Positions 21,153 to 37,324 of a DNA stretch of 64,000 nucleotides are shown one piece after another. Each line of letters begins with the position of its first letter. Position 1 is the stretch's first letter. Below the pieces are notes generated by a model. It was given only the letters and a program-made list of their open reading frames with translations. It did not search any database and was not told the origin of the DNA. The translations under genes were made by a program, and so were the position numbers. Origin of the DNA: Bryobacterales bacterium (GTDB lineage: Bacteria; Acidobacteriota; Terriglobia; Bryobacterales; Bryobacteraceae); contig CAWFPJ010000002.1 of NCBI GenBank assembly GCA_963817515.1, positions 39,454-103,453 on the forward strand, given 5' to 3'.

Positions 21153-22691
21153 CTAGCGGATCACGTACAAATCCAGATCCGAAGCCAGGTCTCCGTGTTC
21201 CTGAATCCCTACCGTCTTCGCCGCGGCCGCATCCATGGCTGCGGCATCCGGCATCAGGTACTCAAAGGTGGCGAGGATTCGGTAACTTCCGGGCGCCAGG
21301 CCCTCGAAACGATACAGGCCGTGCGCATCGGTTCGCGTGACCCGCAGATCCGTGAGCCGCTTGCGCCCGTCCGGGTCGTATCCTTCCAGGTAGACCGGCG
21401 CGCCAAGCACCGGTTCCGCGGAATCTTTAACAGTCCCATGGACCGCCGCCGGGCCGGACGACAGCACGAACCTGACACGATCGAAGCCGCCCCGGATGAT
21501 GGTTTCGTTCCAGCCGTCCGCGCGCACATCCGGACGGCGGGCGTAGAACGGGCCGGAAAATCCGGCGACATAGTACCCTGGCGGCGGCGCTAACAGGAAC
21601 TGCCAGCGGCCTGGAGCCAGCGGGATTCGGTTGTTGACCAGCTTCAGACTGGCTGCGGGGCCTTCGCCTGCCAGATCTTTGCGGCGCGCCATCACCTGCA
21701 TGGACCCCGATGAGAGCGCTTGCGGCGGCGCGCCCTGGAAATCGAACTGCGTGTCGCGCAGGTTCTGCAGAGGCGTGACAAGCCTCTGGTCCCGTGCCAA
21801 CTCCACAGGTACGTAGGCTGCCTGCAGCAGAGCGCCTGAGGCCGGGTCGAAGCCCTGCCCGAACAATTCGTACCCGCCCGGCGTCAGGGAATTGAATTGA
21901 AAACCGCCGCCTTGCGTGGTGTCGCGGCCCATCTCCGAGATCAGAGTCGCGGTGATTCTGATGTTCGGTTCGAGGTCCGACGTGAACGCGCCCGAGAGAC
22001 TCAATAGCTTTCCCGGCAAGGGGCGGACATCGGCGTTCGCGACCTGCCGGTCCAGATCCACGTCCAAAATTCGCGCGTCCTCCACGCTCGCGGCGGCCGG
22101 AGAATAAGTCGGCAAATAGCCGCCCTCTTCGTAGAGCTTGGCCACGGTGCGGACCACATAGGCGCCGGGCTCAAGACCGTAGATACGGTACAAACCGCGC
22201 TCATCGGTGCGGGCGCGTTGGGTAGCCTGCGGCGGCCGGGTGTTACGGTACGCCACCACATCGTGGTCGGGGAGCCCCACCTCGTTATCGTCGAGCACTG
22301 CGCCGGTGATGGCTCCGTATCGCGGCAGGCGGACGTTGAGGAATGCGGATGCGGCCTCATCCAGAGTTACCGGAGTACCCGCGGAATTCCACCGCTTCTG
22401 CCCATACTCCACCGGCAGAAAATATGGCTTCGAAATCTTGACGACATATACGCCGCCGGGAAGCGAACCGAACTCAAAGATGCCGTAGCGATTGGTGAGC
22501 GCCCGCCGCGGAGATCCAGGGGTTCCGGCGACGGGCTGCACCACCACCAGCGCTCGCGAAAGCGCCTTGCTGGTCTGGTGCTCCACCACGTTGCCGCGAA
22601 TCACGGCGGCATCCAGCGTGGTTTGCAACGTACCCAAGGCCAAGGCGAGCATCAACATCAGCAGCAGCCATTTCGCCATAGCCGGCTTCAT
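21153..22691 (-). CDS. Secreted carboxypeptidase-regulatory-like domain protein (paralog 1)
   Basis: Signal peptide WLLLMLMLALALGTL. Repeated CarboxypepD_reg text (IRGNVVEHQTSKALSRALVVV..., VHGTVKDSAEPVLGAPVYLE...HGLYRFEGLAPGSYRI). Ends ...DLDLYVIR. Confidence 0.7.
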   Translation of the reverse strand: MKPAMAKWLLLMLMLALALGTLQTTLDAAVIRGNVVEHQTSKALSRALVVVQPVAGTPGSPRRALTNRYGIFEFGSLPGGVYVVKISKPYFLPVEYGQKRWNSAGTPVTLDEAASAFLNVRLPRYGAITGAVLDDNEVGLPDHDVVAYRNTRPPQATQRARTDERGLYRIYGLEPGAYVVRTVAKLYEEGGYLPTYSPAAASVEDARILDVDLDRQVANADVRPLPGKLLSLSGAFTSDLEPNIRITATLISEMGRDTTQGGGFQFNSLTPGGYELFGQGFDPASGALLQAAYVPVELARDQRLVTPLQNLRDTQFDFQGAPPQALSSGSMQVMARRKDLAGEGPAASLKLVNNRIPLAPGRWQFLLAPPPGYYVAGFSGPFYARRPDVRADGWNETIIRGGFDRVRFVLSSGPAAVHGTVKDSAEPVLGAPVYLEGYDPDGRKRLTDLRVTRTDAHGLYRFEGLAPGSYRILATFEYLMPDAAAMDAAAAKTVGIQEHGDLASDLDLYVIR

Positions 22692-24232
22692 CGGATAACG
22701 TACAGCTCCAGATCGAGGGGCGTGTCGTGGCTTTCTTCGATCTTCACCGTGCGGGGGCCGGCCGACTCCATAGTTGCCGAATCCGGCGCCTGAAATTCGA
22801 ACGTGCTGAGGATGCGGTAATTGCCGGGAGCCACGCCGTAGAACTGGTACTGGCCGTGAATGTCGGTGCGCGCTTCCCTGACGTCGATCAGGCGCTTGCG
22901 CGCGTCCACGTCGTACGCTTCCAGGTACACCGGCGCGCCCGGCACGGCGTCATGGCCGGCAATGGCTACCGTGCCGTGAAGCTGGCCGGGAGTGGACAAA
23001 CGGAAGGTCACCAGATTGGTGCCAACCTGCGTCGAGGGCAGCAGCACTTCGTTCCAGCCATCGGCACGGCTGCGGTCCACGCCGTCCGGCCTGCCGTCTA
23101 CTCCAGGGCCTCTGAACGTTTCGGCGTAATATTTCGGCGTGGGAGCCACCGCCATGTCCCATCGGCCGGGAGCGAGTTGCGTGGCGCCCTTCGAAAGCCG
23201 CAGGGTTTCGGTCTTGCCCTCACCCGAAAGATCCTTACGGCGCGCCAATACCTGCACCGTGCTGGGGTCGATCGGCTGGCCTTGGGTGTCCTGAAATGAG
23301 AACTGCAGCGGCGGATAGGTGCGCAGGCCGATCCGGATGTCGGTGCGGTCGCGCTCGAGTTCCAGCGGCATGTAAGCGCCTAGCGGTCCGCGGCGATCGC
23401 CCGGCGCGGTTGCGTATAACTCATAGCGGCCGGGGGCCGTGGGAGCGAATTTGAAGTTGCCGTCCTGGTCGCTCGAGAAAGTCTCCGACCCGGTATCGGA
23501 AATCAAGGTCAGAAGCGCCGGCTGCGGTGGCGACAAGGGAACCAGGGCCTGTCCGGCCACGATGAATAACTGGCCCGGGTGCGGGCGAACATTCACGTTG
23601 CTGGTCTCACGGTCGATCTCCACTTCCACCTGATACGCCTGGTCCACGGCGGCCACCTCCTTATAAAACGTAGGGAGATAACCGCCCTCTTCATATTCCT
23701 TGCCCACGGTGCGGACCAGATAGCGGCCGGGCTCCAGACCGGCAATGCGATACATGCCGCGATCGTCGGTCTTCACGCGTGTGACCAGTTGCGGCGGACG
23801 GGTGTTGCGATAGATCACGACGTCGTGCTCCGGCAGGCCCACGTCATTTTCATCCAGGATGACGCCGGTAACGGAGCCGAACCGCGGCATGCGGATGTTG
23901 AGAGACGTGGATTGCGCCTCTTCGAGTACTACGGGAATACCCGGAGCTTTCCAACGCTTTTGTCCATAGAGGGCCGGCGCGAAGCTGCGCCTTGACACGC
24001 TGACCAGATAGGCGCCCGCGGGGATTGTGGGCGTCTCAAAAGCGCCGTAGGAATTGGTACGGACGGAAATTGTCGGGCCGGGCGTGCCTTGCACCGGCGT
24101 TACCACCACAAGGGCGCGCGCCAGCACTTTTCCGCTCTGATGCTCCACCACGGTTCCGCGGATGTTGGCGGCCTGGAGAATACCGGCTGTAAGAGCCAAC
24201 AGCAGACATTCCGGCATTAGATATGGGCGCAT
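22688..24232 (-). CDS. Secreted carboxypeptidase-regulatory-like domain protein (paralog 2)
   Basis: Collinear with paralog 1 (IRGTVVEHQSGKVLARALVVV..., LHGTVAIAGHDAVPGAPVYLE...HGQYQFYGVAPGNYRI, ends DLELYVIR). I place the start at ATG 24232 (MRPYLMPECLLLALTAG), not at ORF-track 24541. Its stop overlaps the paralog 1 start (ATGA). Confidence 0.7.
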   Translation of the reverse strand: MRPYLMPECLLLALTAGILQAANIRGTVVEHQSGKVLARALVVVTPVQGTPGPTISVRTNSYGAFETPTIPAGAYLVSVSRRSFAPALYGQKRWKAPGIPVVLEEAQSTSLNIRMPRFGSVTGVILDENDVGLPEHDVVIYRNTRPPQLVTRVKTDDRGMYRIAGLEPGRYLVRTVGKEYEEGGYLPTFYKEVAAVDQAYQVEVEIDRETSNVNVRPHPGQLFIVAGQALVPLSPPQPALLTLISDTGSETFSSDQDGNFKFAPTAPGRYELYATAPGDRRGPLGAYMPLELERDRTDIRIGLRTYPPLQFSFQDTQGQPIDPSTVQVLARRKDLSGEGKTETLRLSKGATQLAPGRWDMAVAPTPKYYAETFRGPGVDGRPDGVDRSRADGWNEVLLPSTQVGTNLVTFRLSTPGQLHGTVAIAGHDAVPGAPVYLEAYDVDARKRLIDVREARTDIHGQYQFYGVAPGNYRILSTFEFQAPDSATMESAGPRTVKIEESHDTPLDLELYVIR

Positions 24233-24350
24233 AAGTTCTGACCGTATGACGGCTTGGGAGGCTGGAGAGTGCAGGGAAATGTTAGACCGTACGTGACCGA
24301 AAGATGTAGCATTGAATCCGTGGTGTTCGGTATATACTAACCAAAATCGA

Positions 24351-26303
24351 ATGATCAAGCCGGTGGCTCTCATCAGTATGCCGACTCTTTCGGCGCGCTT
24401 TCCTTCGTTCCAACTGGCACTGCTGAAACCAACTCTGGAGAAGGCCGGCATCCCCGCCCAGACGTTCTCTATGTTTATGTATTTTGGGCAACAGATCGGT
24501 TGGAGAATCAACGAAGCCATTGCCGACGTCTGGCCCAGCATGGTGGGTGAATGGATCTGGACAAAGGCCGCTTTCGGAGACCAGATACGGCAGGATGACG
24601 ACGCCTATTTCGGGGCTTACGACTATATTTTCAAAGCGATTTGCCGCGCCGCCGGCTGTAGCACCAAACGCTTTCAAAAGATCCGCGACCAGGAAGCTCA
24701 GAAGTTTATAGACTTCTGCCTGGAGGCCATAGACTGGCGGCGCTTCGGAGTAATTGGCTTTTCCGTGGTCTTCCAGCAAACGCTGGCCAGCCTGGCGCTG
24801 GCTAAAGCTCTGAAGAAGCGATACCCGGAGATTCCCATCATTTTCGGAGGAGCGAGTCTGGAAGACGATATCGCCGACGAGATCATGCGGGAGTGTCCTC
24901 AGGTGGATTACCTGCACTGCGGCGACGCCGAAATCTCATTTCCCGAAATGGTGCAGCGGCTGTATCGCGGCCAATCCATGGAGGGCTTGCGCGGCCTGAT
25001 GTGGCGCAACGGGGACAAAGTGGAGTATGCCGGCCGGGCGCCCAATTTCATGGCCATGGATGAGACTCCGCTGCCGGATTTCGACGAGTACTTCTACGCC
25101 CGCAAGGAAGGCGGCTACGAGGATTACGACGAGGCCTGCGAACCGCTGCTTCCGATCGAGACGGCGCGGGGCTGCTGGTGGGGCGAAAAACACCACTGCA
25201 CCTTTTGTGGTTTGAACCGCTCAGGCATGGAGTTTCGCGCCAAGGAGCCGGAGCGCGTCCTCGAGCAACTGGAAGATCTGGCGCGAAAATACGGGGTTCT
25301 GCACTTCAATGCCATCGACAATATTATGGCGCCGGAATACACGGAGAAGCTCTTCCGCCGCCTGGCTGAGGCCAATAGCGACCTGCAGCTCCATTATGAG
25401 ATCCGGCCCAATTTTTCGCGAACCCAACTCGGCCGGATGCGGAAGGGGGGCCTGTATTCGGTTCAACCGGGCGTGGAGAGCCTCTCTACCAACATTCTGA
25501 AAAGCATGCGCAAGAATACCACCGGCATGCGCAATGTCGAGTTGATCAAGTGGTGCACGTACTACGGGATCAATAATATGTACAACATCCTGATGCGCTT
25601 TCCGGGCGAGACCGAGGAAGACTACAGGGTACAGGCAGCGCTGGTCCCCAAGCTGCTCCATTTGCAGCCGCCCTACGGAATCGTCAAGGCGCGGGCTGAC
25701 CGTGGCTCCCCCATGTTTACCGAACCGGAAACGCAATCCATCACGCGCCTCAAACCGGCCGCCTGTTACGACCACATTTTTCCCAAGGGCTTCAATCTGG
25801 AGCGGGTGTCTTACTATTTCGACCACGAGATGGACAACATTGTGGACGAAGAATGCTACGGAGATCTGCTGGACCATGTGGCCCGGTGGCAGGCTAGTTG
25901 GACCGACGCCGGCCACCCGACGCTGCGCTACCGGAAGGCGCTCAAGAGCATCGTCATCGAAGATAGACGGCGCCGGAAACCTAAGACATATTCGTACGTG
26001 GACGGCCCGGCCGCTCTTTATGAATACTGCGCCGATGCGCGAACGCCGCGCGATATATCCGCCAACATAGGATCCGGGCCGGGTTCCGAAACCTGGATAC
26101 AGGAGGCGCTGGATGAATTCGTAAGCAGAGATCTGATGCTCTTTCTGGATGGCCGATATCTCAGCCTGGCGCTGCCCGAGAATCCGGATTTCGAACTGGT
26201 GACGCCGCCGCGTGCGCTCTCTGAAAGCGGCGCCGGCGCGCAAAGCAACTCGGCTGCGGGTTTGGTTTCACTGGCCGGATTGACAGGAGGACATTCCCAT
26301 TAA
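24351..26303 (+). CDS. B12-binding-domain-type radical SAM enzyme, RiPP-maturase-like (candidate TIGR03975-type C-methyltransferase family)
   Basis: ATG 24351 (MIKPVALISMPTLSARFPSFQLALLKP) is preferred over TTG 24312. Cluster motif ETARGCWWGEKHHCTFCGLN with Cys codons at 25173, 25197 and 25206. The N-terminal region is flavodoxin/B12-like, and there is a C-terminal extension of about 250 aa. The family assignment is from memory of the GCWWG..HC.FCGLN signature and needs an HMM search. Confidence 0.75.
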   Translation: MIKPVALISMPTLSARFPSFQLALLKPTLEKAGIPAQTFSMFMYFGQQIGWRINEAIADVWPSMVGEWIWTKAAFGDQIRQDDDAYFGAYDYIFKAICRAAGCSTKRFQKIRDQEAQKFIDFCLEAIDWRRFGVIGFSVVFQQTLASLALAKALKKRYPEIPIIFGGASLEDDIADEIMRECPQVDYLHCGDAEISFPEMVQRLYRGQSMEGLRGLMWRNGDKVEYAGRAPNFMAMDETPLPDFDEYFYARKEGGYEDYDEACEPLLPIETARGCWWGEKHHCTFCGLNRSGMEFRAKEPERVLEQLEDLARKYGVLHFNAIDNIMAPEYTEKLFRRLAEANSDLQLHYEIRPNFSRTQLGRMRKGGLYSVQPGVESLSTNILKSMRKNTTGMRNVELIKWCTYYGINNMYNILMRFPGETEEDYRVQAALVPKLLHLQPPYGIVKARADRGSPMFTEPETQSITRLKPAACYDHIFPKGFNLERVSYYFDHEMDNIVDEECYGDLLDHVARWQASWTDAGHPTLRYRKALKSIVIEDRRRRKPKTYSYVDGPAALYEYCADARTPRDISANIGSGPGSETWIQEALDEFVSRDLMLFLDGRYLSLALPENPDFELVTPPRALSESGAGAQSNSAAGLVSLAGLTGGHSH

Positions 26304-26352
26304 CCACCTGGCATCTCCCCGCATTGCAACCCCGCGCGAGGAGTTGCTGGAC

Positions 26353-29262
26353 ATGCTGCTGCAGCGTGGAATTTTGCGCCGCAACGAAGCTCAGCCGGTG
26401 CTTTCACGCGATGGCAAACCGGCCCGCTGGATGCTGGATTCGCTGGCCGTCACGATGACCAGCAGGGGAGCGGAACTGGCCGGACAGCTTGTGCTGGAGC
26501 GTCTGCGGAATTTCGATGGCCGGCAAATCGCGACCTACGGGCTGACCGCGGTTCCCATCCTGCAATCGGCAATCGTGCAATCGGCAGTTCTGCAGCCGGA
26601 ACGCCCGTATCACGGTCTGCTGGTGCGCAAAGAGCGCAAAGCGTACGGTTCGCAGAAACTGATTGAAGGCTGCATCGATCCGGACGAGCCCACTATACTG
26701 ATCGACGATTCCGTCGCCTCCGGCGTGAGCATGAGTGAGGGCATCGAGAAACTGGAGGCGGCCGGTATTCGCGTTGAGGGATGCGTGGCTCTGGTGCGGT
26801 TCGGTTGGGAAGGCGGATTTTCGATGCTTGCCCAGCGCGGCCTTCACGTGGAGGCGGTCTACGACATCTTTGAAGACTTCATGGCGCGAATGGAGGGCGA
26901 GCCTGGGCCAGACTATAACCCGACAAAGTGCTTTCCGGAATTTCGCTGGAGCACGCGGCGCGCGCCCGAGGGGCTGCATCCGGCACGTCTTGCCAGAGAG
27001 GTGATGCAGGAGTATTTCGCCAGCGGCGAGTTGCTGAGGCCACCGGACCGCCTGGATCGCGATGACTACGATTCCAGGGGAGGGGCCTGGGTGAGCCTGC
27101 GGTCACGGGACGATATGTTCGAGCGTTACGCGCGCGACGGCTTCTGGCATTTTCCCCAGGAGGGATCCTGGGGAGCGGCCGAGGATATCGTCCGCGCGGC
27201 GTTCCGCACTGCCCTCGAAATGTCCGCGGGCGGCAAGGGCATCAGTCTGCTGGGAGACAGCCATGCCGCTGTGACGTTGTTTTCGAGGCTCGAACGCGCG
27301 GCCATCGGGGAACTGGACAACCAACGCTACGGCATAATCGTAGCCAGTGCGGAGCGGCCGGAAATCATGGGCGGCGCTCTGCCCGGTATGCCGGGAATCC
27401 GTGACGAATGGCAACAGTTCCGCCACGCCCGGTATAACAATGCCGCGCTGTACCCTCACGAACCTTACACGGTCTACCGCCATGAAGTTCGAAAGTTCAT
27501 CGAACCGGGAGCGCCGTGGCCGCCGGGAGGAGTGGGGGACTCGAAGACGCCGGGCGATTTCGGCGCCTGGGCCGTGCGCGCCCGTGAAGTCGTCACCCGT
27601 GAAATAAGCCGGGGCTGCGAACCCTTCACACCGCTGGCGGCGGTCCACCTTCCGGAGAACGCCAGACTCATGTTCGTGACGCTCTATATCGACGGGCGGG
27701 TGCGCGGCTGCATGGGCTCGGAAATCGGCGATGCCGAAGAGGATCTCCGTGAACTGGCGCAGTCGGCCCTTACCGACGAGCGGTTCGAAGCCGCGCCGAT
27801 CGAGGAAGATTCTACCGTGGCGGTGAGCGTCTCGGTGCTCTACAACGAATTGGTTATGGGAGATTTCTCGCGTGAGGAGGTCCGCTTCCGCTATCGGCAT
27901 GGACAGCAGGCGTTGATGCTCGACCAGAAGGGCCGCGAGGGACTGCTGCTGCCATGCGTGGCAACGTGGCTCAGCCTTGACGCCGAGGATTTCGTCGATG
28001 AAGTGATTGACAAGGCGGGCGTCACGCGTCCGCCGTATAACTGGCGGCGCTTTGATTGCGATACCTGGCTGGCGGACGAAGACGGGGTTGCGCGGCTCGA
28101 TGGCGCTTTCAAGGTTGCTGCTTATCATCACACGGCCGATCTTTATAGGGCCGATCTTTCCCTCGCCAAAATCGCTCGCCTGCACGCGGACTATTTGCTG
28201 CGCAACCAGCGCCCGGATGGATCGCTCTACTTCGGCCACTACGCATTTGAGAACACACTCTACCAGGGCATTGACGCGGCTCACCTGGCGCACGCAGGCT
28301 GGATTCTGGCGCGGGCAGGTTTGGCCGACGCCTCAAACGCGGCTCTGGAACGAGCGGCAAATCTATCCGGGGACGAGCCGCTCAGGCTTTCGCGCGACGC
28401 GTTTTTCCTGCTCGCGAAGTGCGAACCGGCCCTGGCCGAGGGTGACCTGCCGGCGGCTGCGGAAATCGCGGCCAGACTGTGGACGTCAATAGACCGTCAT
28501 GGTCGCGTGACCACCTGGAGTCCGCCTGCGGCCGTGGAATCTGATGATGAGGATTCCGCCGATGCCCCCGAGGCTGACACCGGCGTGAGCGAGACCATTG
28601 ACGCTGAGGACCTTCAGAACTATGCTCCTGGCCATGTCCTGCTGGCCCTTGCCGCGGCCGCACGCGCAGGCAATTTTCCCTGCGACGAGCGGAAACTCAA
28701 CCGCGCGTTTCTGTATTACCGGCATCGTTTCCGCTACAAACGGGATTTCGGACAGGTTTCCTGGATGGCGCTGGCCTGGAGCGCCTGGTGGCGGCTGCGG
28801 AATGAACCGGAGTTTGCAGATTTCGTTTTCGAGATCGCCGACTGGATTCTGCAATTTCAGCACACCGGCACCGGAGCTTTTCTTACCGATCACCAACCGG
28901 ATACTCCCGGGTACACTACCGCGGTTTATCTGGAAGGCATCGCTGCCGCGGCGGTGACGGCACTCGCGCGCGGCGACACCACGCGGTACCAGCGATATTC
29001 GGACGCACATCGCCGCGGCTTCGCATTTCTTGACCGGTTGATCATTCAGGATCGCGATAGCTCTGTGCTTCCCAATCCCGGATACGCTCTAGGCGGTCTT
29101 CGCGAAAACCTATACAGCAGTCACATCCGAATCGATTTCGTGGCCCACTCGCTGGCCGCGATTCTCGAACTTTATCCCCAAGCTCTAATTCCAGTAGCAA
29201 ATACAAGAGGAGAATCAGAATGGCAGGCAAGAAGAAACCAAAGAAGCCAGGACCAATTATAG
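26353..29262 (+). CDS. Multidomain fusion protein: type I phosphoribosyltransferase domain + AMMECR1 domain + C-terminal helical-repeat (alpha/alpha-toroid-like) domain
   Basis: GAGGAG (26338-26343) lies 9 nt before ATG 26353; the ORF track starts at TTG 26344. OPRT-like N-terminus with the PRPP loop TILIDDSVASGVSM (about 26692-26735). AMMECR1 signature MFVTLYIDGRVRGCMGS ... GQQALMLDQKGREGLLLPCVA (about 27670-27960). The C-terminal 350 aa or so carry W/Y-rich helical repeats (LLRNQRPDGSLYFGHY, VSWMALAWSAWWRL, AVYLEGIAAAAV). Confidence 0.7.
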   Translation: MLLQRGILRRNEAQPVLSRDGKPARWMLDSLAVTMTSRGAELAGQLVLERLRNFDGRQIATYGLTAVPILQSAIVQSAVLQPERPYHGLLVRKERKAYGSQKLIEGCIDPDEPTILIDDSVASGVSMSEGIEKLEAAGIRVEGCVALVRFGWEGGFSMLAQRGLHVEAVYDIFEDFMARMEGEPGPDYNPTKCFPEFRWSTRRAPEGLHPARLAREVMQEYFASGELLRPPDRLDRDDYDSRGGAWVSLRSRDDMFERYARDGFWHFPQEGSWGAAEDIVRAAFRTALEMSAGGKGISLLGDSHAAVTLFSRLERAAIGELDNQRYGIIVASAERPEIMGGALPGMPGIRDEWQQFRHARYNNAALYPHEPYTVYRHEVRKFIEPGAPWPPGGVGDSKTPGDFGAWAVRAREVVTREISRGCEPFTPLAAVHLPENARLMFVTLYIDGRVRGCMGSEIGDAEEDLRELAQSALTDERFEAAPIEEDSTVAVSVSVLYNELVMGDFSREEVRFRYRHGQQALMLDQKGREGLLLPCVATWLSLDAEDFVDEVIDKAGVTRPPYNWRRFDCDTWLADEDGVARLDGAFKVAAYHHTADLYRADLSLAKIARLHADYLLRNQRPDGSLYFGHYAFENTLYQGIDAAHLAHAGWILARAGLADASNAALERAANLSGDEPLRLSRDAFFLLAKCEPALAEGDLPAAAEIAARLWTSIDRHGRVTTWSPPAAVESDDEDSADAPEADTGVSETIDAEDLQNYAPGHVLLALAAAARAGNFPCDERKLNRAFLYYRHRFRYKRDFGQVSWMALAWSAWWRLRNEPEFADFVFEIADWILQFQHTGTGAFLTDHQPDTPGYTTAVYLEGIAAAAVTALARGDTTRYQRYSDAHRRGFAFLDRLIIQDRDSSVLPNPGYALGGLRENLYSSHIRIDFVAHSLAAILELYPQALIPVANTRGESEWQARRNQRSQDQL

Positions 29263-29664
29263 AAGTGGCCCCGCCCGTGAAGAAGGGCTATGGAGGAATC
29301 ATCGAAGTGGCTCCGCCAACCGGCAAGCGTCGGGTCACCAAGCCGGTGATCGAAATAGCGCCGCCGGTCAAAGGCAAACGGCCCGGTGACGTGATTGTCG
29401 AAGTGGCTCCGGACATCAAGAAAAAGGCCGGTGGTGTGATGGAAATAGCGCCCGCCGTTCAACGGAAGAGCAAACCCCCCGGGGGGCCCATAAAGGAGAT
29501 AGCACCGGCGGTGAAGCCAAAGCCTTCCAAGCCCTGTGGGGCCGATTAAGGAAGTGGCCCCACCTACCAAGCCAAAGCCGAAGCCCATAGTGGAAATCGC
29601 GCCCCCTAAGAAGAAGTACAAGGGGCCGATTGTCGAAGTGGCTCCTCCGACTAAGAAGAAGTAG
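29220..29664 (+). CDS. Lys/Pro-rich repeat peptide (nine IEVAPP-type repeats). The reading frame is interrupted once, at the G4 run 29538-29541.
   Basis: GAGGAG (29207-29212) lies 7 nt before ATG 29220, and the start is 43 nt inside the end of the upstream gene. ORF 29220-29549 encodes six repeats and stops at TAA 29547. The +1 frame continues with three more repeats (GPIKEVAPPTKPKPKPIVEIAPPKKKYKGPIVEVAPPTKKK) to TAG 29662-29664. Removing one G joins them into a 147-aa product. Differences between repeats are mostly synonymous in this strand and frame. Confidence 0.65.
29256..29649 (+). repeat. Nine degenerate in-frame coding repeats (period 39-51 nt) encoding [IVMP][IVMK]E[VI]AP[PAD]
   Basis: Cores: IIEVAPP, IIEVAPP, VIEIAPP, IVEVAPD, VMEIAPA, IKEIAPA, IKEVAPP, IVEIAPP, IVEVAPP. 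They are separated by K/R/G/P-rich linkers. Confidence 0.85.
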
Positions 29665-29783: not shown

Positions 29784-30194
29784 TCAGAAGTGGTAGAGCA
29801 TCACGTACACCACCACGCCGGTCACGCTCACGTAAAGCCAGATGGGCAGCGTCCAGCGCGCAATTTTCCGGTGTTTGTCGTAACGGGCAGCCAGGCCGCG
29901 GCGCAGCGTGATAGTCGCCAGCACCGGAACCGTCGCGGCCAGCACTGTGTGGGTGAACAGGATGGTGAAATAGACAGTGCGGATGGCGCCGGTATGCTGA
30001 AACTTCACCGAGCCCACCTGCAGGTGATATATCACGTAGCAGACCAGAAATAAACACGAAGTCGCGAACGCGGTTTTCATGACCCGGCGGTGCTGGTCGA
30101 TGCGTTTGCGGCGAATCAGGATGAAGCCCCACACCAGCAGCACGGCGGCCGTGGCGTTGAGCGTGGCATTTACGGTGGGCAGTATTGCGATCAT
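29784..30194 (-). CDS. DUF420 domain-containing membrane protein (CtaM-like oxidase-associated factor)
   Basis: Four predicted TM helices. The NATLNATAAVLLVWGFILIRRKRIDQHRRVM and HTVLAATVPVLATITLRRG pattern is typical of DUF420. Confidence 0.7.
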   Translation of the reverse strand: MIAILPTVNATLNATAAVLLVWGFILIRRKRIDQHRRVMKTAFATSCLFLVCYVIYHLQVGSVKFQHTGAIRTVYFTILFTHTVLAATVPVLATITLRRGLAARYDKHRKIARWTLPIWLYVSVTGVVVYVMLYHF

Positions 30195-30790
30195 GATCGC
30201 TCGCGCTGTAACTGGTGGAGGTCGTGGAGCAGGCGCGCCTTGAAGTCGTCGTCGGAGGTCAGATAGAAGCCGCGAATGCGCCGCCGGCCATCCACCAAGG
30301 CGAACCGCGTGCTGTGACTCAGGCTGCCGTCTACGCCGGTGAGCTTGAAACCCTTGAGCCCGAGTTCGTTGAGGCGCGCCATATCGCCGGTCAGGAAATA
30401 CCAGCGCGCCAGGTCGGCTTTGAAGAATTGCGCGTACTTGGCGAGCACCGGCGGGGTGTCGTGCGCCGGGTCCACCGTGAAGGAAACCAGCTTGACGTCA
30501 GGCGTCGATTCGGTGGAACTTTGCAGTCCGCGCATCTGGTGGCTCATCATGGGGCAGGGGCCGTCGCAAGTTGTGTAAATGAAATCGGCGATCCAGATGT
30601 GGCCATCGAGAGTCTTGCTGTCGAAGGGCTGGCCGGTCTGGAGGATGAGGTCGAACTGTGGAACCTCGCCCAGCACCGGCAGCGGCTTGGTGGTGACGCA
30701 TGAGGCTAGAAGGGATAACAGGAGGCATGCCGTGCCGGTTTGAAAGCCGGCGTGGCACGCACGAGTGCCTGCTCCACGGCGGGTGCTCAT
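30191..30790 (-). CDS. SCO1/SenC family copper chaperone (thioredoxin fold)
   Basis: I place the start at ATG 30790 (MSTRRGAG...LLLSLLASC); ORF-track 31486 is a spurious extension. CDGPC copper motif in IADFIYTTCDGPCPMM and the downstream SHSTRF histidine. Its stop overlaps the DUF420 start. Confidence 0.85.
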   Translation of the reverse strand: MSTRRGAGTRACHAGFQTGTACLLLSLLASCVTTKPLPVLGEVPQFDLILQTGQPFDSKTLDGHIWIADFIYTTCDGPCPMMSHQMRGLQSSTESTPDVKLVSFTVDPAHDTPPVLAKYAQFFKADLARWYFLTGDMARLNELGLKGFKLTGVDGSLSHSTRFALVDGRRRIRGFYLTSDDDFKARLLHDLHQLQRERS

Positions 30791-31518
30791 GTGGTTGACT
30801 TCTGCGCCGCCAACATGCCGGAGGCCAGTAGAAGCGCCAGTCCGAAGGCCGCGGTGATGGCGAGGCTTTCGGCCGGCCCGGGGACGGCGTTGGGCAACCC
30901 GAGCATATAGTTCAGCAGGGAGATTGAATAGGTGAGCGGGTTGATCCACATGAGGGCCCTTACCCATCCGTGCGCCGTGGCCATGGGGAAGAGGGCGCCT
31001 GACACCATCCACATGGGCACCAGCAGCAACATCATGATGCCGTGAAATGCCGCGGTGGAATCCATTTTCCATGCGATCGCAAACCCGAGACCGGTGAGCG
31101 TGAACGAAATTAGAAACATCGCGGCCACAACCCACAACACATCTATCAGCCCGATGCTCACCCCGGCCAGCGGGGCGAAGACCAGCAGCATCAGGCCCTG
31201 GATCCAGCCCAACGTGGCGGCGCCCAGAATCTTGCCCAGCACCAGGCTGGTGCGCGGCGCGGGCGAAACCAGCATGGAAAGCAGAAAACCCTCCCTGCGG
31301 TCTTCGATGATCGAAATGGTGGAAAAGATGGCGGAAAACATCACCGTCAGCACCAGAGTTCCCGAATAGTATCGCGCCAGGTCGCCCGAACCGTAACCGA
31401 TCAGCAGCCAGAAAACCAGCGGCGAAGCCACCACGCTCATCACGCGGCTTTTCTGGCGCCAGAAGCGCAGCATTTCGCGCTGCCACAAGGTTGCTGCGGG
31501 CAAGAAGAAGCTACTCAA
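30787..31518 (-). CDS. ABC-2 type transporter permease
   Basis: Six hydrophobic segments. TLWQREMLRFWRQKSRV is the typical ABC-2 N-terminus. The start is uncertain: TTG 31518 overlapping the ATPase stop, or ATG 31473. ATGA overlap with the SCO gene. Confidence 0.7.
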   Translation of the reverse strand: MSSFFLPAATLWQREMLRFWRQKSRVMSVVASPLVFWLLIGYGSGDLARYYSGTLVLTVMFSAIFSTISIIEDRREGFLLSMLVSPAPRTSLVLGKILGAATLGWIQGLMLLVFAPLAGVSIGLIDVLWVVAAMFLISFTLTGLGFAIAWKMDSTAAFHGIMMLLLVPMWMVSGALFPMATAHGWVRALMWINPLTYSISLLNYMLGLPNAVPGPAESLAITAAFGLALLLASGMLAAQKSTT

Positions 31519-32420
31519 GCGCCGCTCCCGTTTCGCGTATGAACACGTCTTCGAGCGTAGGTTTATGCAGGCCGACGGATTCCACCGCGCCCGGAAACGC
31601 CTCCACCACTTCGGCAATGAAGCGGTGGCCGTTCTGCATTTCCACGCGCACCTGGCCGTCCCGGGTTACAGGGTGCAGGCCGAAGCGCTGCTCAATCTTG
31701 GCCGCCAGCGATTTGCTGTCCGCCGTTTCCAGAAGCACCACATCGCCGCCGATACGCGCGCGCAATTCGCTGGAACTGCCCTGCGCCACGATGCTTCCCC
31801 TCGTGCAACAGGGCCAGCCGGTCGCAACGGTCGGCTTCATCCAGAATGTGGGTGGTCAGCAGGATGGTGACGCCCTCGTGTTCGCGCAGGCTCTCGACGT
31901 GCCGCGAAAGGTCGCGCCGCGCAGCCGGGTCGAGGCCGGTCGAAGCCTCATCCATCAACAGCACCTTGGGCTGATGCAGCAGCGCCTTGGCGATCTCCAC
32001 GCGCCGGCGCAATCCGCCGGAAAGCGCTTCCACCAGATCTTTGCGCCGATCCGTCAAGCCCAGGCGCTCCATGGCGCGGGCCATTCGCTCGCGCAGCAGC
32101 ACGCCGCTGAGACCGTGCAGGTGGCCCTGCGCGCGCAGGTTCTCTTCCACCGTAAGGGCCTTGTCCAGGCTTTGCGTCTGGAAGACCACGCCTACTTCGC
32201 GGCGCACGGCGGCGGGCTCGCGCTCCACATCATGGCCCGCGATGATTGCGCGGCCTTCGGTGGGCGACATCATGGTGGAGAGAATACGGAAGAGCGTGGA
32301 TTTTCCACCGCCGTTGGGCCCGAGAAGGCCGAAGATTTCACCTTTCTTCACGTCGAAGCTGACGCTCGAAAGCGCAACCCGGTCACCGTAGCGATGGGTA
32401 AGGTTTTGAACTTGGATCAC
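31511..32420 (-). pseudogene. ABC transporter ATP-binding protein with one apparent 1-nt insertion near 31792
   Basis: GTG 32420 start (VIQVQNLTHRYG) overlaps the haem O synthase stop (GTGA). Walker A GPNGGGKST, signature LSGGLRRRV, Walker B LLMDEAS. The frame of ORF 31692-32972 gives ...LALLHEGKHRGAG. The frame of ORF 31511-31840 gives SIVAQGSSSELRARIGG.... Deleting one base restores LHEGKIVAQG. Confidence 0.8.
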
Positions 32421-33295
32421 AGACCGGGCCTGTCTAGGAGCATGAGCCCGTAGATAAGCGGCAGGTATATCACGGACGTAATCAGGACATTGCGCGCGCG
32501 CACCAGGCTTCGCTCCAGCGCTACCCGCACACCTGAATATAAAAACCAAAGACCGAGCAGCAGAGCCCCGACAAGATAGATGCGTCCCGACATTCCCAGG
32601 AGACCCGGCACCAGGCTGACCGGAATCAGCGCCAGACCATACAGCACGATCTGCCGCGCCGTGGACCGGCCGTCCGGCTCCACTACGGGCAGCATCAGGA
32701 TGCCGGCGCGCGCGTAGTCTTCCCGATACATCCAGGCGATCGAATAGAAATGCGGGAACTGCCATAGGAAAAGGATCGCGAACAGAACCCACGATTCGCG
32801 CGTGATGCCGCCGGCCGCCGCAGCGTAACCGATCATAGGCGGCATGGCCCCCGGAATCGCGCCGACTGTAGTGGACCACCATGTCCGCTGCTTCATGGGG
32901 GTGTAGAGGAACAGATAACTGACCAGCGTAAAGGCGCCGATCAAGGCCGAAAGCAGATTCACCCCCAGCCACAACTCGAGAAAACCGGCGGTTGAAAGCA
33001 CTGTGCCAAAGGCCAGCGCGCGACCGGCGGACAGCCTGCCCGAAGGTAGCGGCCGGTCCGCCGTGCGGTGCATCTTGCGATCGGCTACGCGCTCATACCA
33101 CTGGTTCAGCGCCGCCGTGCCGGAGGCTATGAGCGCGGTCCCGAAGATGGTGTGCAAGAGCGAGAGAAGATTGATGTGGGTGAGGAAGTCCCACCAGGTG
33201 GCAGCACGGGGCAGCCCGAAGAAATACCCGATCCCTGTGCTCATGAGGATCAGCCAGGTGATTCGCGGTTTCGTCAATTCGATGTAATCGCGCAT
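32417..33295 (-). CDS. ctaB: Protohaem IX farnesyltransferase (haem O synthase)
   Basis: UbiA-family text: YIELTKPRITWLILMSTGIGY, NQWYERVADRKMHRTADRPLPSGRL, FLWQFPHFYSIAWMYREDYARAG. Confidence 0.9.
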   Translation of the reverse strand: MRDYIELTKPRITWLILMSTGIGYFFGLPRAATWWDFLTHINLLSLLHTIFGTALIASGTAALNQWYERVADRKMHRTADRPLPSGRLSAGRALAFGTVLSTAGFLELWLGVNLLSALIGAFTLVSYLFLYTPMKQRTWWSTTVGAIPGAMPPMIGYAAAAGGITRESWVLFAILFLWQFPHFYSIAWMYREDYARAGILMLPVVEPDGRSTARQIVLYGLALIPVSLVPGLLGMSGRIYLVGALLLGLWFLYSGVRVALERSLVRARNVLITSVIYLPLIYGLMLLDRPGL

Positions 33296-33373
33296 TCAGC
33301 GTGGAGTGGACCTCCTGACCTGCTTAGTGCCACCAGCTTAGTGCCACCAGCAGGCCAGGAGGCCTACCCTACT

Positions 33374-34161
33374 TTACCCTTTGATGGTAAAATCCACAGT
33401 CTTGCTTTCCTTGGCACCGACAGTCACGGTCTGTTCCTGCGCGGGATACTTCTCATGCCGCACTTCAATCGTGTATGTCCCGGGCGGCAATCCTTTTAGT
33501 GTAAACGTTCCGTCGTCGCCCGTCACGGCGAAGAACGGGTGCGCCACTACATTGATGTAGGAACGCATCCACGGGTGCACATTGCACTTCACCGGAATCA
33601 TGATTTCCTGGCGGGCGAACGCCTTCGTTTTGTCTTCGCTGCCCGGTGACTGCGACTCGTTCCATTCCTGGTTTACGGCCGGCTGCGGGTGAATGTTGTG
33701 ATTGGTGGGGTCGCTGGTCTTGATGTCAATGTTCTGCCCAGTCATCACTCCGATCATGTGCGGCTTGTACATGCAGCCGTTCTGGTCGAGCAGGACTGCC
33801 GTGGTGGGCACGGCCCAGTTCTTATCCGGCAGGCCGGACTTGACCCACACGAAAGCATACTTCACCGTACCGTTGTCGTTCACCACTACTTCCTCGGACT
33901 TTTGGGGGGCGCCCTTATGCTTCGCCTCGCAGGCCGGGGTTGCCGACATATCCATGGTTGCCATCTTAGGCTTGTCACCCGTGAATACGACTTTGCCGGT
34001 TACCGTGCCGCCATTAGCTTCGTCGGGCATTGCAGCGGCGCCGCCGCCGCGGCTGCCGGCGCCGCGGTATCCGTCTTAGCCGTCTCTGGCGGCTTGTCGC
34101 CCCCGCATCCAACCAACGTCAGGGCGGCTGCCAGCCCAATTCCCATCCAAATCTTCTTCAT
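33374..34161 (-). pseudogene. Lipoprotein with a cupredoxin-type copper site and a CarboxypepD_reg-like tail; one apparent frameshift in a GC-rich Ala tract
   Basis: The lipobox start MKKIWMGIGLAAALTLVGCGG (ATG 34161) is in the frame of ORF 34000-34218. The body is ORF 33374-34030. KCNVHPWM gives a C-x2-H-x2-M ligand spacing with upstream His residues. The frame change lies between about 34025 and 34070, inside the (GCG/GCC)n Ala tract. Confidence 0.55.
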
Positions 34162-34198
34162 ACTTAATAAGCCTCCTTGGCTTAAACTTATACGGCCA

Positions 34199-37100
34199 TC
34201 AATTACTTGTTCCCGCACTGGCGCGCATTTTGCTCAGTTCCTCGGGAGTGAATGAGAACATGTACCGCACCAGCAAATCCGCGTGGTCCTTCTCATATCC
34301 GTTAAAGCTGGCGGGCACCGGGCCGGCAAAAACCATCCGGTCGCCTTCGCGCCGGAACAGGCCCGAGGGCATCGCCGTGCCCGGACTCATCAGGGCAGGA
34401 TCCAGCATCCAGCGGCGCGTCCAACCCGGCTTCAGCCTTTCCTTGGCTACCGTGAAATTCGGCGCGGTGGCTCTGGAATCATGCTTCGGATCGCCCGTCA
34501 TGTGGCACTTCAGGCAAGGCGCGCCTTCACTGGTGAACAACTGCCGCGCCATGGTCCGCTCCTGGTCTGTCAGGGGATCCAGCTTTTCCGCGATGAATGG
34601 CTGGGCCTGCGACGACATGGCTTCGAAGAACCGGACCAGCTTGCGGATCTCACCATCGGAGAAGCTGAAGGTCGGCATCCGCGCTTTCAGATACTGGCGA
34701 ACTCCATCGCGATTGGTGTCGGTTTCGCTAAGCGCCGGATTGTTGAGGAACCGCATCAGCCAATCCGGATTCACGCGCGCGCCTTCGCCGATCAACGTGG
34801 GCGGCTTCTGGTCTTTCCAGTCCGGATCCTGATACTTGGTCATGGTGTCGAATATGCTGTTCTGCCCCACATGCACTTTGTGGCAGCCCATGCAGTTGTA
34901 CTTGCGCACCACCCACCAGCCGTCGATGATGTCCTGGCGCTGGTCGGTGGGAGTGTAGAAATACCGGGAAGGCACGCTGGCATCCACCGAACCTTCCAGC
35001 AGCGTCGTCACGGCGTCGATCTCCGGCTTTGAGAAGTTGAAGTTCGGCATCTTCAGCCGGTCCTGCTTGGCCTTCTCCTTGCCCGTGTCATACACCGCCG
35101 GGTTCTCGAGTTTGTGTTCGAAGAAGCCCTTGTGCGTATACCAGCCTTCCTCTTCGGCCTTGTGCCCGAGCAGCGCGAAATCCAGGCGCTCCGTCGGTTT
35201 GGAACCTTCCTTCGTCAGTTCCGTCCCGATGCGCTGTTCTTCTTCCAGGCCCGCGATCTCATGGCATCCGGCGCAACCATAATTGCGAACCAGCGACAGG
35301 CCCTGGTTCTTCAGATTCGGGTCGTCCATGTAGTCCGTGTTCGCGTACGCAGCATCGCCGTGTTTGCGGGTCATCAGGTAACTGGCAACGTCCCGGGCTT
35401 CGTCTTCCGTCAGACGCAGGCTGGGCATTGGAGTCATCTGCTGCACCTGCAGTTCATGGCCGTCATTAGGGCACTTGGAGTGTTCCAGGTCGAAGACGTA
35501 CGGCAGGTTGTGACGCTGATAGTCTTCCGCAGTCAGGTCCTTCTTTTCGAAGGAGCAGTACGGCGCCGAGCGCTGGCGCGGATTGTGCACCCACCGCACC
35601 AGGTAATCGTAGTTAGCCTTTTCGCCCTCGCGGCTCAGATTAGCTGCGAACGTGCCGCCCTGCTTCTGGCCGCCCTCGCCCATGGAGTGGCAGGCCATGC
35701 AGCCGCGCGTTTCAAAAGCCTCCTGGCCCTTGGCCGGGTCGCCCGGCTTCTGCGCCGGCGGCGCGGCATTGACGCCCGATTGCCAGATGAAGGCTGAAAT
35801 CGCGCGGATCTCATTGTCATCCAGGCGGAAGGTCGGCATCTTGGTGCCTTCGCGCCAGACGTGCGGGTCTTTCAACCAGACCGGAATCCATTGCTTCTTC
35901 AGCTTGGCGCGAACTTCCTTGAGACTTGGCCCCACCTTCTTGACTTCGCGAATCAGACTGCGCGAGCGCATATCGAACTGCTCGATCTTGGCATCCAGGC
36001 CGCTGGTTCGCACTTTCAAATCGTTGGAGTGCTGGAAGAGCTGCTTGGCCTCGGTATCGCTGGTTCGCGGGTTGTTGGCCTTCTCATCGCTGAATCCGAT
36101 CTCGCGCTTCCACTCAGCCTTCTGCTGCTCCAACTGGCGGATCTGCTGGTTCACCGATGAAATTTCGTCGGCCTCGCGGTCGAAGCCTTCATACCGATGG
36201 CAGCCCATGCACCCGCGAAGACGGAAGATTTCGCGCCCCTGGTTGAGCGTGTCCGCCATCTCAGTGACAATCTCACGCACATGGCATTGCTGGCACCCGG
36301 CGTCGATGTTCTCTTTGTGGTGCATCGGCCAAAGCCAGAACTTGTTATATCCGTGCGCCTTCTCGATACTGGAAAGCGCCGCCCCATTGCCCCCGTGGCA
36401 GGGTGTGCAACCGAACTTGTCGGGGTCGTGGATCTTCAGCAGCTCCTTATTCGGGTGGCTGGTGAAGACTTCCTCACCGCCCATGGCGGCCTTGGTCAGC
36501 ACGATCGGCTCGCGCGTTCCCAGGTGGCAGGATTCGCAGCGGTCCACCAGGTCCACGTCCTTGACATGGATCTGGCGAATTTTAATGTCGAACTTTTCAA
36601 GCGAGGACTGCACCGCCGAAATGGTCCCCGTGCTGGCAGCGGCGATTCGGTCCGACAGGTATTGGTCGCGCTTGGCGCGAAGCTCCGTGGCCGTCTTCAT
36701 CAGGTCCACACGCTGCTGCAATAGCTTGGCCTTCTCGTCTTTCATTGCCTGAAGCTGGTCGGCCATCTGCTGGAAAGTCATCTCGTTGGCCTTCTCGTCG
36801 CCCGGCAGCTTCACGCTTTTCGTTTCGGCTTTCAACTCCACAATCTGCTTGCGCAAGGAGTCCTTACTGCTCTCGCTCTTCGTCACCTCAATCTCATAGG
36901 TGAGCGCGCCGATGTGGCTGCGCACTTCCTGGAAAGGATCGTTCAGCGCCAGGATCTTGGGTACGAGTTCCTGATTGATTTTCTTATCGATGGTGGACGC
37001 GCCCGGCATGGCAGCTTGTTCGGCTGCTGCCATTTCGCGGTCTAACCGCTGGTAATCCGGCGAAGTCCTGATCTGTTTCTCGACGTCGGCTTCTCCGCCG

Positions 37101-37285: not shown

Positions 37286-37324
37286 ATGGTCGTCGCTAAA
37301 TATTTGTCGCCTGTATATTGGCTT

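Follow-up and report, generated by a model that had tools for sequence, protein, structure and literature searches.

A stretch of 64,000 nucleotides from a Bryobacterales bacterium (assembly GCA_963817515.1, contig CAWFPJ010000002.1, positions 39,454-103,453 of the forward strand; GTDB lineage Bacteria; Acidobacteriota; Terriglobia; Bryobacterales; Bryobacteraceae), referred to below as the window, encodes a 969-residue fusion protein (26353..29262, + strand; ATG at 26353, stop codon at 29260-29262) composed of, in this order, an orotate phosphoribosyltransferase (OPRT)-like phosphoribosyltransferase (PRTase) domain, a divergent AMMECR1 domain, a canonical AMMECR1 domain and a six-hairpin (alpha/alpha)6 toroid. 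Its gene stands in a conserved three-gene module together with the genes of a radical S-adenosylmethionine (radical-SAM) enzyme of the TIGR03975 family and of a peptide made of short repeats. We lean toward the reading that the fusion protein is the signature tailoring enzyme of an undescribed pathway resembling those of peptides that are made by ribosomes and then modified after translation (RiPPs), and it is reasonably probable that the protein is a maturase acting on the repeat peptide. Transfer of a phosphoribosyl group to the glutamate of the repeated core would be a possible but doubtful course for that maturation.

The fusion, radical-SAM and repeat-peptide genes form a module

Gene neighborhoods were counted at 17 genome loci carrying the fusion gene, 16 of which could be assessed for the radical-SAM gene, and more distant loci were considered in addition. 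The radical-SAM gene adjoined the fusion gene at all 16 assessable loci and the repeat-peptide gene did so at 16 of the 17. All-versus-all clustering of the flanking open reading frames (ORFs) gave no other gene common to more than six loci; the apparent extra clusters were alternative-frame shadows of the conserved genes and were dismissed. A short precursor gene conserved beside tailoring enzymes, by which RiPP clusters are recognized, was thus seen at 16 of 17 loci and also at the distant loci L021, L023 and L029. Gene order varied. The peptide gene lay upstream of the fusion gene in L011 and L014, in the latter with the radical-SAM gene after the fusion gene, and the order was peptide, fusion, radical-SAM in L021 and L023 and peptide, radical-SAM, fusion in L029. 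The peptides of these distant loci contained five ITEVAPE cores (L021), eight PPVIMEIGPGRPTR cores (L023) and ten VITEVAPGT cores (L029). At the most distant end, in P0199 (a member of the set at 25-49% identity), the fusion gene was followed by that of an (E-I-x-E-I-A/V)n repeat protein. The module persists through deep divergence (about 25-49% identity) and gene-order shuffling, and the neighborhood of the three genes is obligate. They make up a widespread and apparently undescribed family of putative peptide-modification loci in the Acidobacteriota.

In one locus (L017:5596-8938) the fusion gene was broken by frameshifting into two ORFs and the peptide encoded downstream lacked E-V-A-P cores, with only remnants such as DTAPP. 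Enzyme gene and substrate gene seem to have decayed together here.

The radical-SAM gene of the window lies upstream of the fusion gene (24351..26303, + strand) and encodes a B12-binding enzyme of 650 residues. A preliminary description of this DNA, made from the sequence alone, was silent on this gene, which accompanies the fusion throughout the assessable loci. The protein matched TIGR03975 ('RiPP maturation radical SAM C-methyltransferase') with E 7.8e-169 and 563 bits against a cut-off of 281.85, and was also matched by the Pfam Radical_SAM and B12-binding models. Its cluster motif is Cx7Cx2C (CWWGEKHHCTFC, aa 275-286) and not the canonical CxxxCxxC. A second TIGR03975-like paralogue with the same Cx7Cx2C motif was encoded downstream of the peptide in L013 and L016.

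The repeat peptide

The repeat-peptide gene of the window is split into two parts. Part a (29220..29549, + strand; 109 aa) starts within the fusion gene, sharing its final 43 nt, encodes MAGKKKPKKPGPIIEVAPPVKKGYGGIIEVAPPTGKRR... and contains six x-x-E-(V/I)-A-P copies joined by Lys/Arg-rich linkers. A Shine-Dalgarno-like AGAGGAG (29206..29212, + strand) is located 7 nt 5' of its ATG, within the 3' end of the fusion gene. Part b (29536..29664, + strand), 42 aa from a GTG, is read in another frame and contains three perfect repeats. Removal of any one base within 29520-29539 joins the two frames into one ORF of 147 aa that holds nine repeats, and part b is probably the frameshifted continuation of part a. 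As the repeat peptide was one continuous ORF wherever it was found in relatives (complete examples being 120-280 aa), the split probably reflects an indel in the assembly, or else a mutation or frameshift of very recent date. The nine repeats use different synonymous codons and therefore selection acts on the peptide.

A synthetic two-repeat peptide of the core type would read KKPGPIVEVAPPVKK, and across loci a peptide carries 7-17 copies of the (P/V)-I-V-E-V-A-P core. A logo of 134 repeats read (G/R)(P/V)-I-V-E-V-A-P, with V or I at position +1 in 114, A at +2 in 103 and P at +3 in 121. Position 0 was set to Glu in the search pattern, and hence the invariance of Glu in the logo is by construction. 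Glu was nevertheless present in every core that we read by eye in other loci, including the acidic-linker loci, L020, L021, L023 and L029. No conserved Cys, Ser or Thr was found in the core among the repeats compared, nor a conserved leader in the peptides compared. The peptides listed were almost free of Cys, with Ser and Thr in the linkers and occasionally at core positions. Some lineages have basic linkers and others acidic ones, and the core is kept in both. Given the acidic linkers of some lineages, Lys is not the target; Glu would be the only plausible polar target, since it appears to be the sole conserved functional side chain of the cores. Scans of the peptides with Pfam and NCBIfam gave no usable match, and we found no NCBIfam model for the precursor, for domain 2 of the fusion or for its toroid.

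The acidic-linker variant was seen in 'Candidatus Angelobacter' metagenome-assembled genomes (MAGs; L012, L013 and L016), with linkers such as RPIVEVVAEVQTPAFADGER and RPIAEISPDVNFANGER. A further variant (L020:4442-5161) has about twelve E-I-x-E-I-(A/V) cores, and the C-terminal part of this protein, which comes after them, weakly matched the pesticin/phage-lysozyme-like toxin C-terminal domain (PF16754, E 5.9e-7).

The repeat protein could itself be the finished product, an intrinsically disordered polymer modified in place and not the precursor of a secreted natural product, in which case the module would carry out protein modification and not RiPP biosynthesis. The length of the peptides (120-280 aa, up to 17 repeats, without leader/follower architecture) suits a polymer, as do the fusion of the L020 repeats to a C-terminal globular part with its pesticin/lysozyme-like match and the lack of any protease, exporter or immunity gene conserved near the triad. 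On the other hand, the dibasic and polybasic linkers of the Bryobacterales type resemble the processing sites of multi-core precursors such as those of cyanobactins and fungal dikaritins, and the flip of linkers from basic to acidic with retention of the core suggests that the linkers are disposable. Moreover, TIGR03975 is, by its model name, otherwise tied to RiPPs. We consider the polymer unlikely and treat the repeat peptide below as a candidate precursor.

Full-length homologs of the fusion protein

The window has a G+C content of about 60% and many long shadow ORFs on both strands overlap the fusion ORF, for which an in-frame TTG at 26344, three codons 5' of the ATG, is an alternative start that would give 972 residues. 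That the + frame is the real one follows from the conservation of its product, which recurs at 25-72% identity among more than 160 full-length proteins of independent assemblies. These comprise 120 homologs at 50-72% identity and 47 further cluster representatives at 25-49% identity, mostly from Acidobacteriota. All are of 850-1100 aa with the same domain order, and they come from independent metagenomes and MAGs, including contigs of 7.9 Mb and 9.5 Mb (P0106 and P0085). Their public annotations read only 'AMMECR1 domain-containing protein' or 'orotate phosphoribosyltransferase/AMMECR1 domain-containing protein'.

The preliminary description had named an assembly join as an alternative. The long ORF would then be an artefact, produced either by such a join or by reading through PRTase, AMMECR1 and toroid genes that are in fact separate. 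Nothing speaks for this beyond the unusual architecture and the one probable single-base indel of the window, which falls in the adjacent peptide gene. Against it stand the homologs of constant domain order and a compact AlphaFold2 (AF2) model of the full-length protein, with a predicted local distance difference test score (pLDDT) of 84.9 and a predicted template-modeling score (pTM) of 0.84. As the 120 and the 47 full-length homologs are found in independent assemblies, the fusion is not an assembly join, and the chance that the ORF is an artefact of any kind seems negligible.

The strings that the preliminary description quoted were all found in the translation: TILIDDSVASGVSM at aa 114-127, GGAWVSLRS at 243-251, RVRGCMGS at 449-456 and GLLLPCVA at 530-537. 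The fusion carries four domains rather than the three first described. AMMECR1 was the sole domain detected by a Pfam scan of the fusion. A Foldseek search of the PDB with the full-length model gave three groups of matches, these being AMMECR1 proteins, OPRTs and small (alpha/alpha)6 class II terpene cyclases. For the domain assignments that follow, a family profile built from 40 sequences was searched against the PDB, and residue conservation was counted in an alignment of the query with the 47 full-length representatives at 25-49% identity (n = 48).

An OPRT-like domain with an intact PRPP loop

Domain 1 (aa ~19-180; 26407..26892, + strand) is an OPRT-like type I PRTase by NCBIfam, PDB profile and Foldseek matches. 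TIGR00336 matched aa 20-169 with E 3.7e-16, and the family profile matched OPRTs of the PDB with E values in the range 1e-9 to 1e-14 (2wns at 1.8e-14, with 2p1z and 5hkf included). The Foldseek matches 5hki, 2wns and 2ps1 had template-modeling (TM) scores of about 0.6-0.75. Alignment with OPRTs located the loop that binds phosphoribosyl pyrophosphate (PRPP), TILIDDSVASGVSM (aa 114-127; 26692..26733, + strand), which has the hydrophobic strand, two acidic residues and S/T-x-G-x-S/T expected of such loops (TILIDDSVASGVS). Its residues are kept down to 25% identity: D118 in 47, D119 in 48, S123 in 42 and G124 in 47 of the 48 sequences. An OPRT-type flexible catalytic loop, VRKERKAYGSQKLIEG (aa 91-106; 26623..26670, + strand), was located by alignment with PDB OPRTs, in which it aligns with RKETKDYGTKRLVEG of the human enzyme and VRKSAKAHGMQRLIEG of the Mycobacterium tuberculosis enzyme. 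The loop has the RKE-K--G---IEG pattern, with R92 kept in 47/48, E105 in 42/48 and G106 in 48/48. Hence, the TIGR00336 and PDB matches and the conserved loop residues bear out the first assignment of the N-terminus as an orotate/purine PRTase-like domain with a PRPP loop.

The domain shares with OPRT (PyrE; PDB 2wns, 5hkf and 2p1z) the fold, the PRPP loop (hydrophobic strand, then DD-x-x-x-S-G-x-S) and the RKE-K--G---IEG flexible loop. It differs from PyrE in being tied to three other domains and in being encoded beside a peptide gene, not in a pyrimidine operon. As OPRTs do, the fusion probably forms a dimer.

Tandem AMMECR1 domains

Domain 3 (aa ~404-585; 27562..28107, + strand) is the canonical AMMECR1 domain. 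PF01871 matched aa 410-565 (E 2.5e-19; 69.8 bits against a cut-off of 25), the family profile matched PDB 1zq7 with E 2.5e-14, and Foldseek of the full model matched 1zq7 and 1vaj. Both family motifs are present, RGChG as RGCMG (aa 451-455; 27703-27717, + strand) and DxRa as DERF (aa 475-478; 27775-27786, + strand), with G452 kept in 42, C453 in 41, D475 in 42 and R477 in 42 of the 48 sequences. The preliminary assignment of the center of the protein to AMMECR1 therefore holds. Balaji and Aravind mapped these two motifs to the predicted AMMECR1 active site (PMC2034487). The same 2007 paper on the RAGNYA fold predicted AMMECR1 to be an enzyme with a catalytic cysteine that works with a radical-SAM partner and modifies RNA bases, and described the fold as a known platform for nucleotide and peptide binding (PMC2034487). 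Conservation of AMMECR1 extends from archaea to humans, in whom it has been linked to an X-linked developmental syndrome (PMC5502304). In the literature searched, no demonstrated biochemical activity for AMMECR1 was reported.

The region that precedes it, domain 2 (aa 186-402; 26908..27558, + strand), is a divergent AMMECR1 fold by AF2 and Foldseek. Sequence methods were silent. Profile comparison of the middle region by hhalign with the AMMECR1 domain, the PRTase domain and the toroid found no similarity (probability about 1% or less), and scans of domain 2 with Pfam and NCBIfam gave no usable match. Thus, the second AMMECR1 fold surfaced only through structure prediction and Foldseek. Modeled alone, domain 2 had a pLDDT of 89.3 and matched all three solved AMMECR1 proteins (best 1vaj, E 1.9e-9, TM 0.65-0.70 over 198 columns), the first non-AMMECR1 match being at E 0.39. 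The preliminary description had suspected a second, degenerate AMMECR1-like half at aa 230-400. The region is indeed AMMECR1-like, but it is a complete second AMMECR1 fold and no half. Where AMMECR1 has RGChG domain 2 has ARDGFW, so the cysteine is absent. The domain has near-invariant residues of its own (n = 48): G244 48, S248 47, R250 46, R258 44, R261 46 and G263 48.

The six-hairpin toroid

Domain 4 (aa ~596-945; 28138..29187, + strand) is an (alpha/alpha)6 six-hairpin toroid by AF2 and Foldseek and is all-helical in the AF2 model. For the C-terminal ~350 residues, Foldseek of the full-length model matched 8pak, 6sbc (MstE) and 8paj with E values of 2e-6 to 1e-4 over about 390 columns. 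The TM scores against these terpene cyclase structures were about 0.55-0.58 with a root mean square deviation of about 10 A, and hence the likeness is at the level of the fold only. Pfam and NCBIfam scans of the fusion's own toroid gave no LANC_like or other usable match. The toroids of two sampled relatives gave weak Pfam matches to GH88, C5-epim_C, GH127, GH76, LANC_like, GlcNAc_2-epim and Prenyltrans. The model, the Foldseek matches and these weak six-hairpin matches agree with the (alpha/alpha)-repeat toroid first proposed for the C-terminus. Conserved toroid residues (n = 48) are R792 in 47, W804 in 46, Q836 in 48, D902 in 44, R926 in 44, D928 in 46 and H932 in 47. Across the fusion protein selection acts on all four domains, the conserved residues being of the kinds expected of active sites.

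Two more specific readings of the toroid were rejected. A LanC-like cyclase is excluded by the lack of an invariant Cys, and hence of a conserved Cys/Cys/His zinc site, and is also disfavored by the lack of a conserved Cys, Ser or Thr in the peptide core. A class II terpene cyclase is excluded by the absence of a conserved DxDD-type catalytic acid motif; the sole D-rich stretch, SDDEDSAD (aa ~731-745), lies in a low-confidence, unconserved loop. The toroid therefore shares its overall fold with six-hairpin enzymes (MstE 6sbc and 8pak, LanC, and the GH88/GH127/AGE types) but has neither of these conserved sites.

The fusion could be mainly a substrate-recognition scaffold for the radical-SAM enzyme that replaces the leader-binding domain, or RiPP recognition element (RRE), of other pathways. 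The AMMECR1 domains and toroid would grip the repeats, and the PRTase-like domain, with no catalysis of its own, would sense PRPP or a nucleotide and so link modification to the metabolic state of the cell. The peptides lack a conserved leader, and Pfam and NCBIfam scans of the radical-SAM protein and the fusion found no PqqD/RRE match. A scaffold would also be in keeping with the loss of the AMMECR1 cysteine in domain 2, the poorly conserved or poorly modeled OPRT base-binding region and the nucleotide- and peptide-binding record of the RAGNYA fold (PMC2034487). However, catalytic-type residues are near-invariant down to 25% identity, namely the DD pair, the R/K/E/G of the flexible loop, and Cys453 with DxR. 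The polar D/R/H/Q cluster of the toroid is near-invariant as well, and a pure scaffold is not expected to need such residues. In our estimation a scaffold is improbable, and an enzymatic role on the peptide remains the reading that we favor.

Relatives of the toroid

A toroid profile searched against 1.84 billion cluster representatives gave 1998 proteins at E<=1e-3, of which 199 reached E<=1e-30. The matches fell mainly into two classes, the ~950-aa four-domain fusions and AMMECR1+toroid proteins of ~600 aa, and Pfam AMMECR1 was present in eight of ten sampled matches (406-1414 aa). The two-domain proteins are common and were also seen in DPANN archaea, next to ribosomal genes. The AMMECR1+toroid pair seems to be an older functional unit, with the PRTase and the second AMMECR1 domain as later additions. 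The contexts of these PRTase-less proteins gave no general role, their contigs being too short or uninformative. One candidate for the PRTase-less form, P0142, was rejected as a contig-truncated full fusion followed by a B12-domain gene.

In a Pyrinomonadaceae MAG (L018:4861-6663) we found a 600-aa protein with a toroid 34% identical to the C-terminus of the window fusion and an N-terminus that, by eye, looks like a degenerate AMMECR1-like domain. Next to it are two ORFs of the RimK-like ATP-grasp kind, a 235-aa protein containing a long run of Asp and, again by eye, a 535-aa ORF that is beta-lactamase-like and a 407-aa ORF that is cytochrome P450-like. The locus may be a different peptide-modification cluster.

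Proposed function

Given the three genes, the most straightforward scheme would have the repeat peptide as the common substrate, with both enzymes recognizing the repeated core directly; direct recognition is suggested by the lack of a conserved leader peptide and of an RRE domain. The radical-SAM enzyme would, as its family name implies, C-methylate unactivated aliphatic carbons of core residues. The OPRT-like domain would bind Mg-PRPP and either transfer the 5-phosphoribosyl group to the core Glu or activate that Glu in a PRPP-dependent manner. Modification of Glu is favored as the simplest chemistry because Glu is the only conserved polar side chain of the cores. More speculatively, the tandem AMMECR1 domains may bind peptide or ribotide and use Cys453, in the RGChG motif, as a catalytic residue, and the six-hairpin toroid may hold or further process the sugar phosphate. 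We hold only with low confidence the full proposal that AMMECR1 domains are peptide-modifying catalysts that partner radical-SAM enzymes and that the PyrE-like domain phosphoribosylates or activates the gamma-carboxylate of peptide Glu by use of PRPP.

Several results weigh against this scheme. Domain 1 falls below the curated cut-offs of its families, with 59.4 bits for TIGR00336 (cut-off 106.8) and 13.1 bits for Pfam PF00156 (Pribosyltran; cut-off 26.3). It also departs from PyrE where the base is bound: the N-terminal 'hood' (aa 8-26), base-binding in OPRTs, was poorly modeled (pLDDT <50), and R149, which aligns near the orotate-binding Arg, is variable, being kept in only 25 of the 48 sequences. 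We know of no type I PRTase that has a carboxylate or a peptide as acceptor. Other usual marks of a RiPP cluster, a conserved leader or RRE and a conserved processing protease or exporter, were lacking; the flank-ORF clustering of the 17 loci gave no conserved protease, transporter/exporter or immunity gene. In L024 a B12-radical-SAM gene stood beside the fusion gene and no peptide was found. The PRTase-less AMMECR1+toroid proteins of ~600 aa (Woesearchaeota contig L019, P0242) had no radical-SAM or repeat-peptide gene among their called neighbors, and the module therefore need not be peptide-specific. All PRPP and peptide chemistry of the fusion is predicted from sequence, models and gene context.

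These archaeal neighborhoods, with ribosomal genes alongside and neither partner gene called, are also what an enzyme of nucleotide or RNA metabolism might show. In that case the fusion would act on a nucleotide, RNA or a small-molecule ribotide and the peptide gene would be unrelated or only regulatory. OPRT-like domains normally make nucleotides, and AMMECR1 was predicted to modify RNA bases (PMC2034487). However, the triad persists at 25-49% identity and in shuffled order with every other flanking gene confined to at most six loci, and in L017 the frameshifted fusion is accompanied by a degenerate peptide. Action on a nucleotide or RNA thus seems quite unlikely, and we return to the peptide as the candidate substrate in the comparisons below.

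Comparison with known systems

By analogy the locus resembles a RiPP cluster, with a precursor gene and a radical-SAM tailoring gene, to which a second enzyme without a characterized relative is added. The nearest parallel for the AMMECR1 domains is the AmmeMemoRadiSam system, which likewise couples AMMECR1 genetically with a radical-SAM enzyme. The score of domain 3 exceeds the Pfam AMMECR1 threshold, and RGChG and DxRa are kept. However, it scored 76.1 bits with TIGR04335, below the cut-off of 99, and no Memo (TIGR04336) homolog was found among the neighbors. Moreover, the radical-SAM enzyme here is a class B (B12) TIGR03975 methyltransferase and not the MiaB/PflA-like TIGR04337 partner. In addition, two AMMECR1 domains stand in tandem here, one of them without the Cys, in a single protein with a PRTase and a toroid, and a candidate peptide substrate is encoded alongside.

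With the proteusin-type pathways (PoyB/PoyC family, TIGR03975) the locus shares a clear TIGR03975 radical-SAM gene beside a ribosomal peptide gene. The precursor here differs in having multiple copies of a short core and no NHLP or Nif11 leader, and there is no epimerase, dehydratase or protease. To our knowledge the fusion enzyme has no counterpart in proteusin clusters. With the multi-core precursors of cyanobactins, fungal dikaritins (e.g., ustiloxin) and orbitides the repeat peptide shares many copies of a short conserved core with variable, often basic linkers between them. It differs from these in that core sequence and enzymes are unrelated, no dedicated protease is present and the linkers of some lineages are acidic.

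A search of the full-text literature found no study that describes the fusion, the peptide family or the pathway, and no curated model was found either; the 2007 RAGNYA paper alone was relevant. Little is known of the natural products of the Acidobacteriota, a phylum dominant in soil. If the scheme is correct, the module would define a new RiPP class from soil Acidobacteriota. It would also supply the AMMECR1 family, to which a human disease gene belongs, with its first biochemical function. Use of PRPP on a peptide would likewise be new enzymology for phosphoribosyltransferases and a post-translational chemistry without precedent. As AMMECR1 is tied here to a PRPP-binding domain, a sugar-type toroid, a radical-SAM enzyme and a genetically encoded, repetitive candidate substrate, the module offers an experimental route to AMMECR1 function.

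Flanking genes in the window

A scan of the window for promoters and terminators found sites no more numerous than in shuffled sequence. On the other side of the radical-SAM gene two tandem CarboxypepD_reg/SdrD_B repeat-protein genes occupy 21153-24541 (- strand). The ORF of the nearer one (22688-24541, - strand; CarboxypepD_reg) runs ~230 nt into the radical-SAM gene on the other strand. An apparent conservation of the N-terminus of this minus-strand ORF was dismissed as the antisense of the radical-SAM 5' end. Its real start is probably near 24231, which would leave a divergent intergenic region of ~120 bp (24231-24351). Downstream of the peptide gene, 29784-38260 (- strand) is a respiratory stretch with genes for DUF420, SCO1/SenC, an ABC ATPase, a UbiA-family prenyltransferase, a 1028-aa multihaem cytochrome c and a cytochrome b-like protein. 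These respiratory genes are outside the conserved module.

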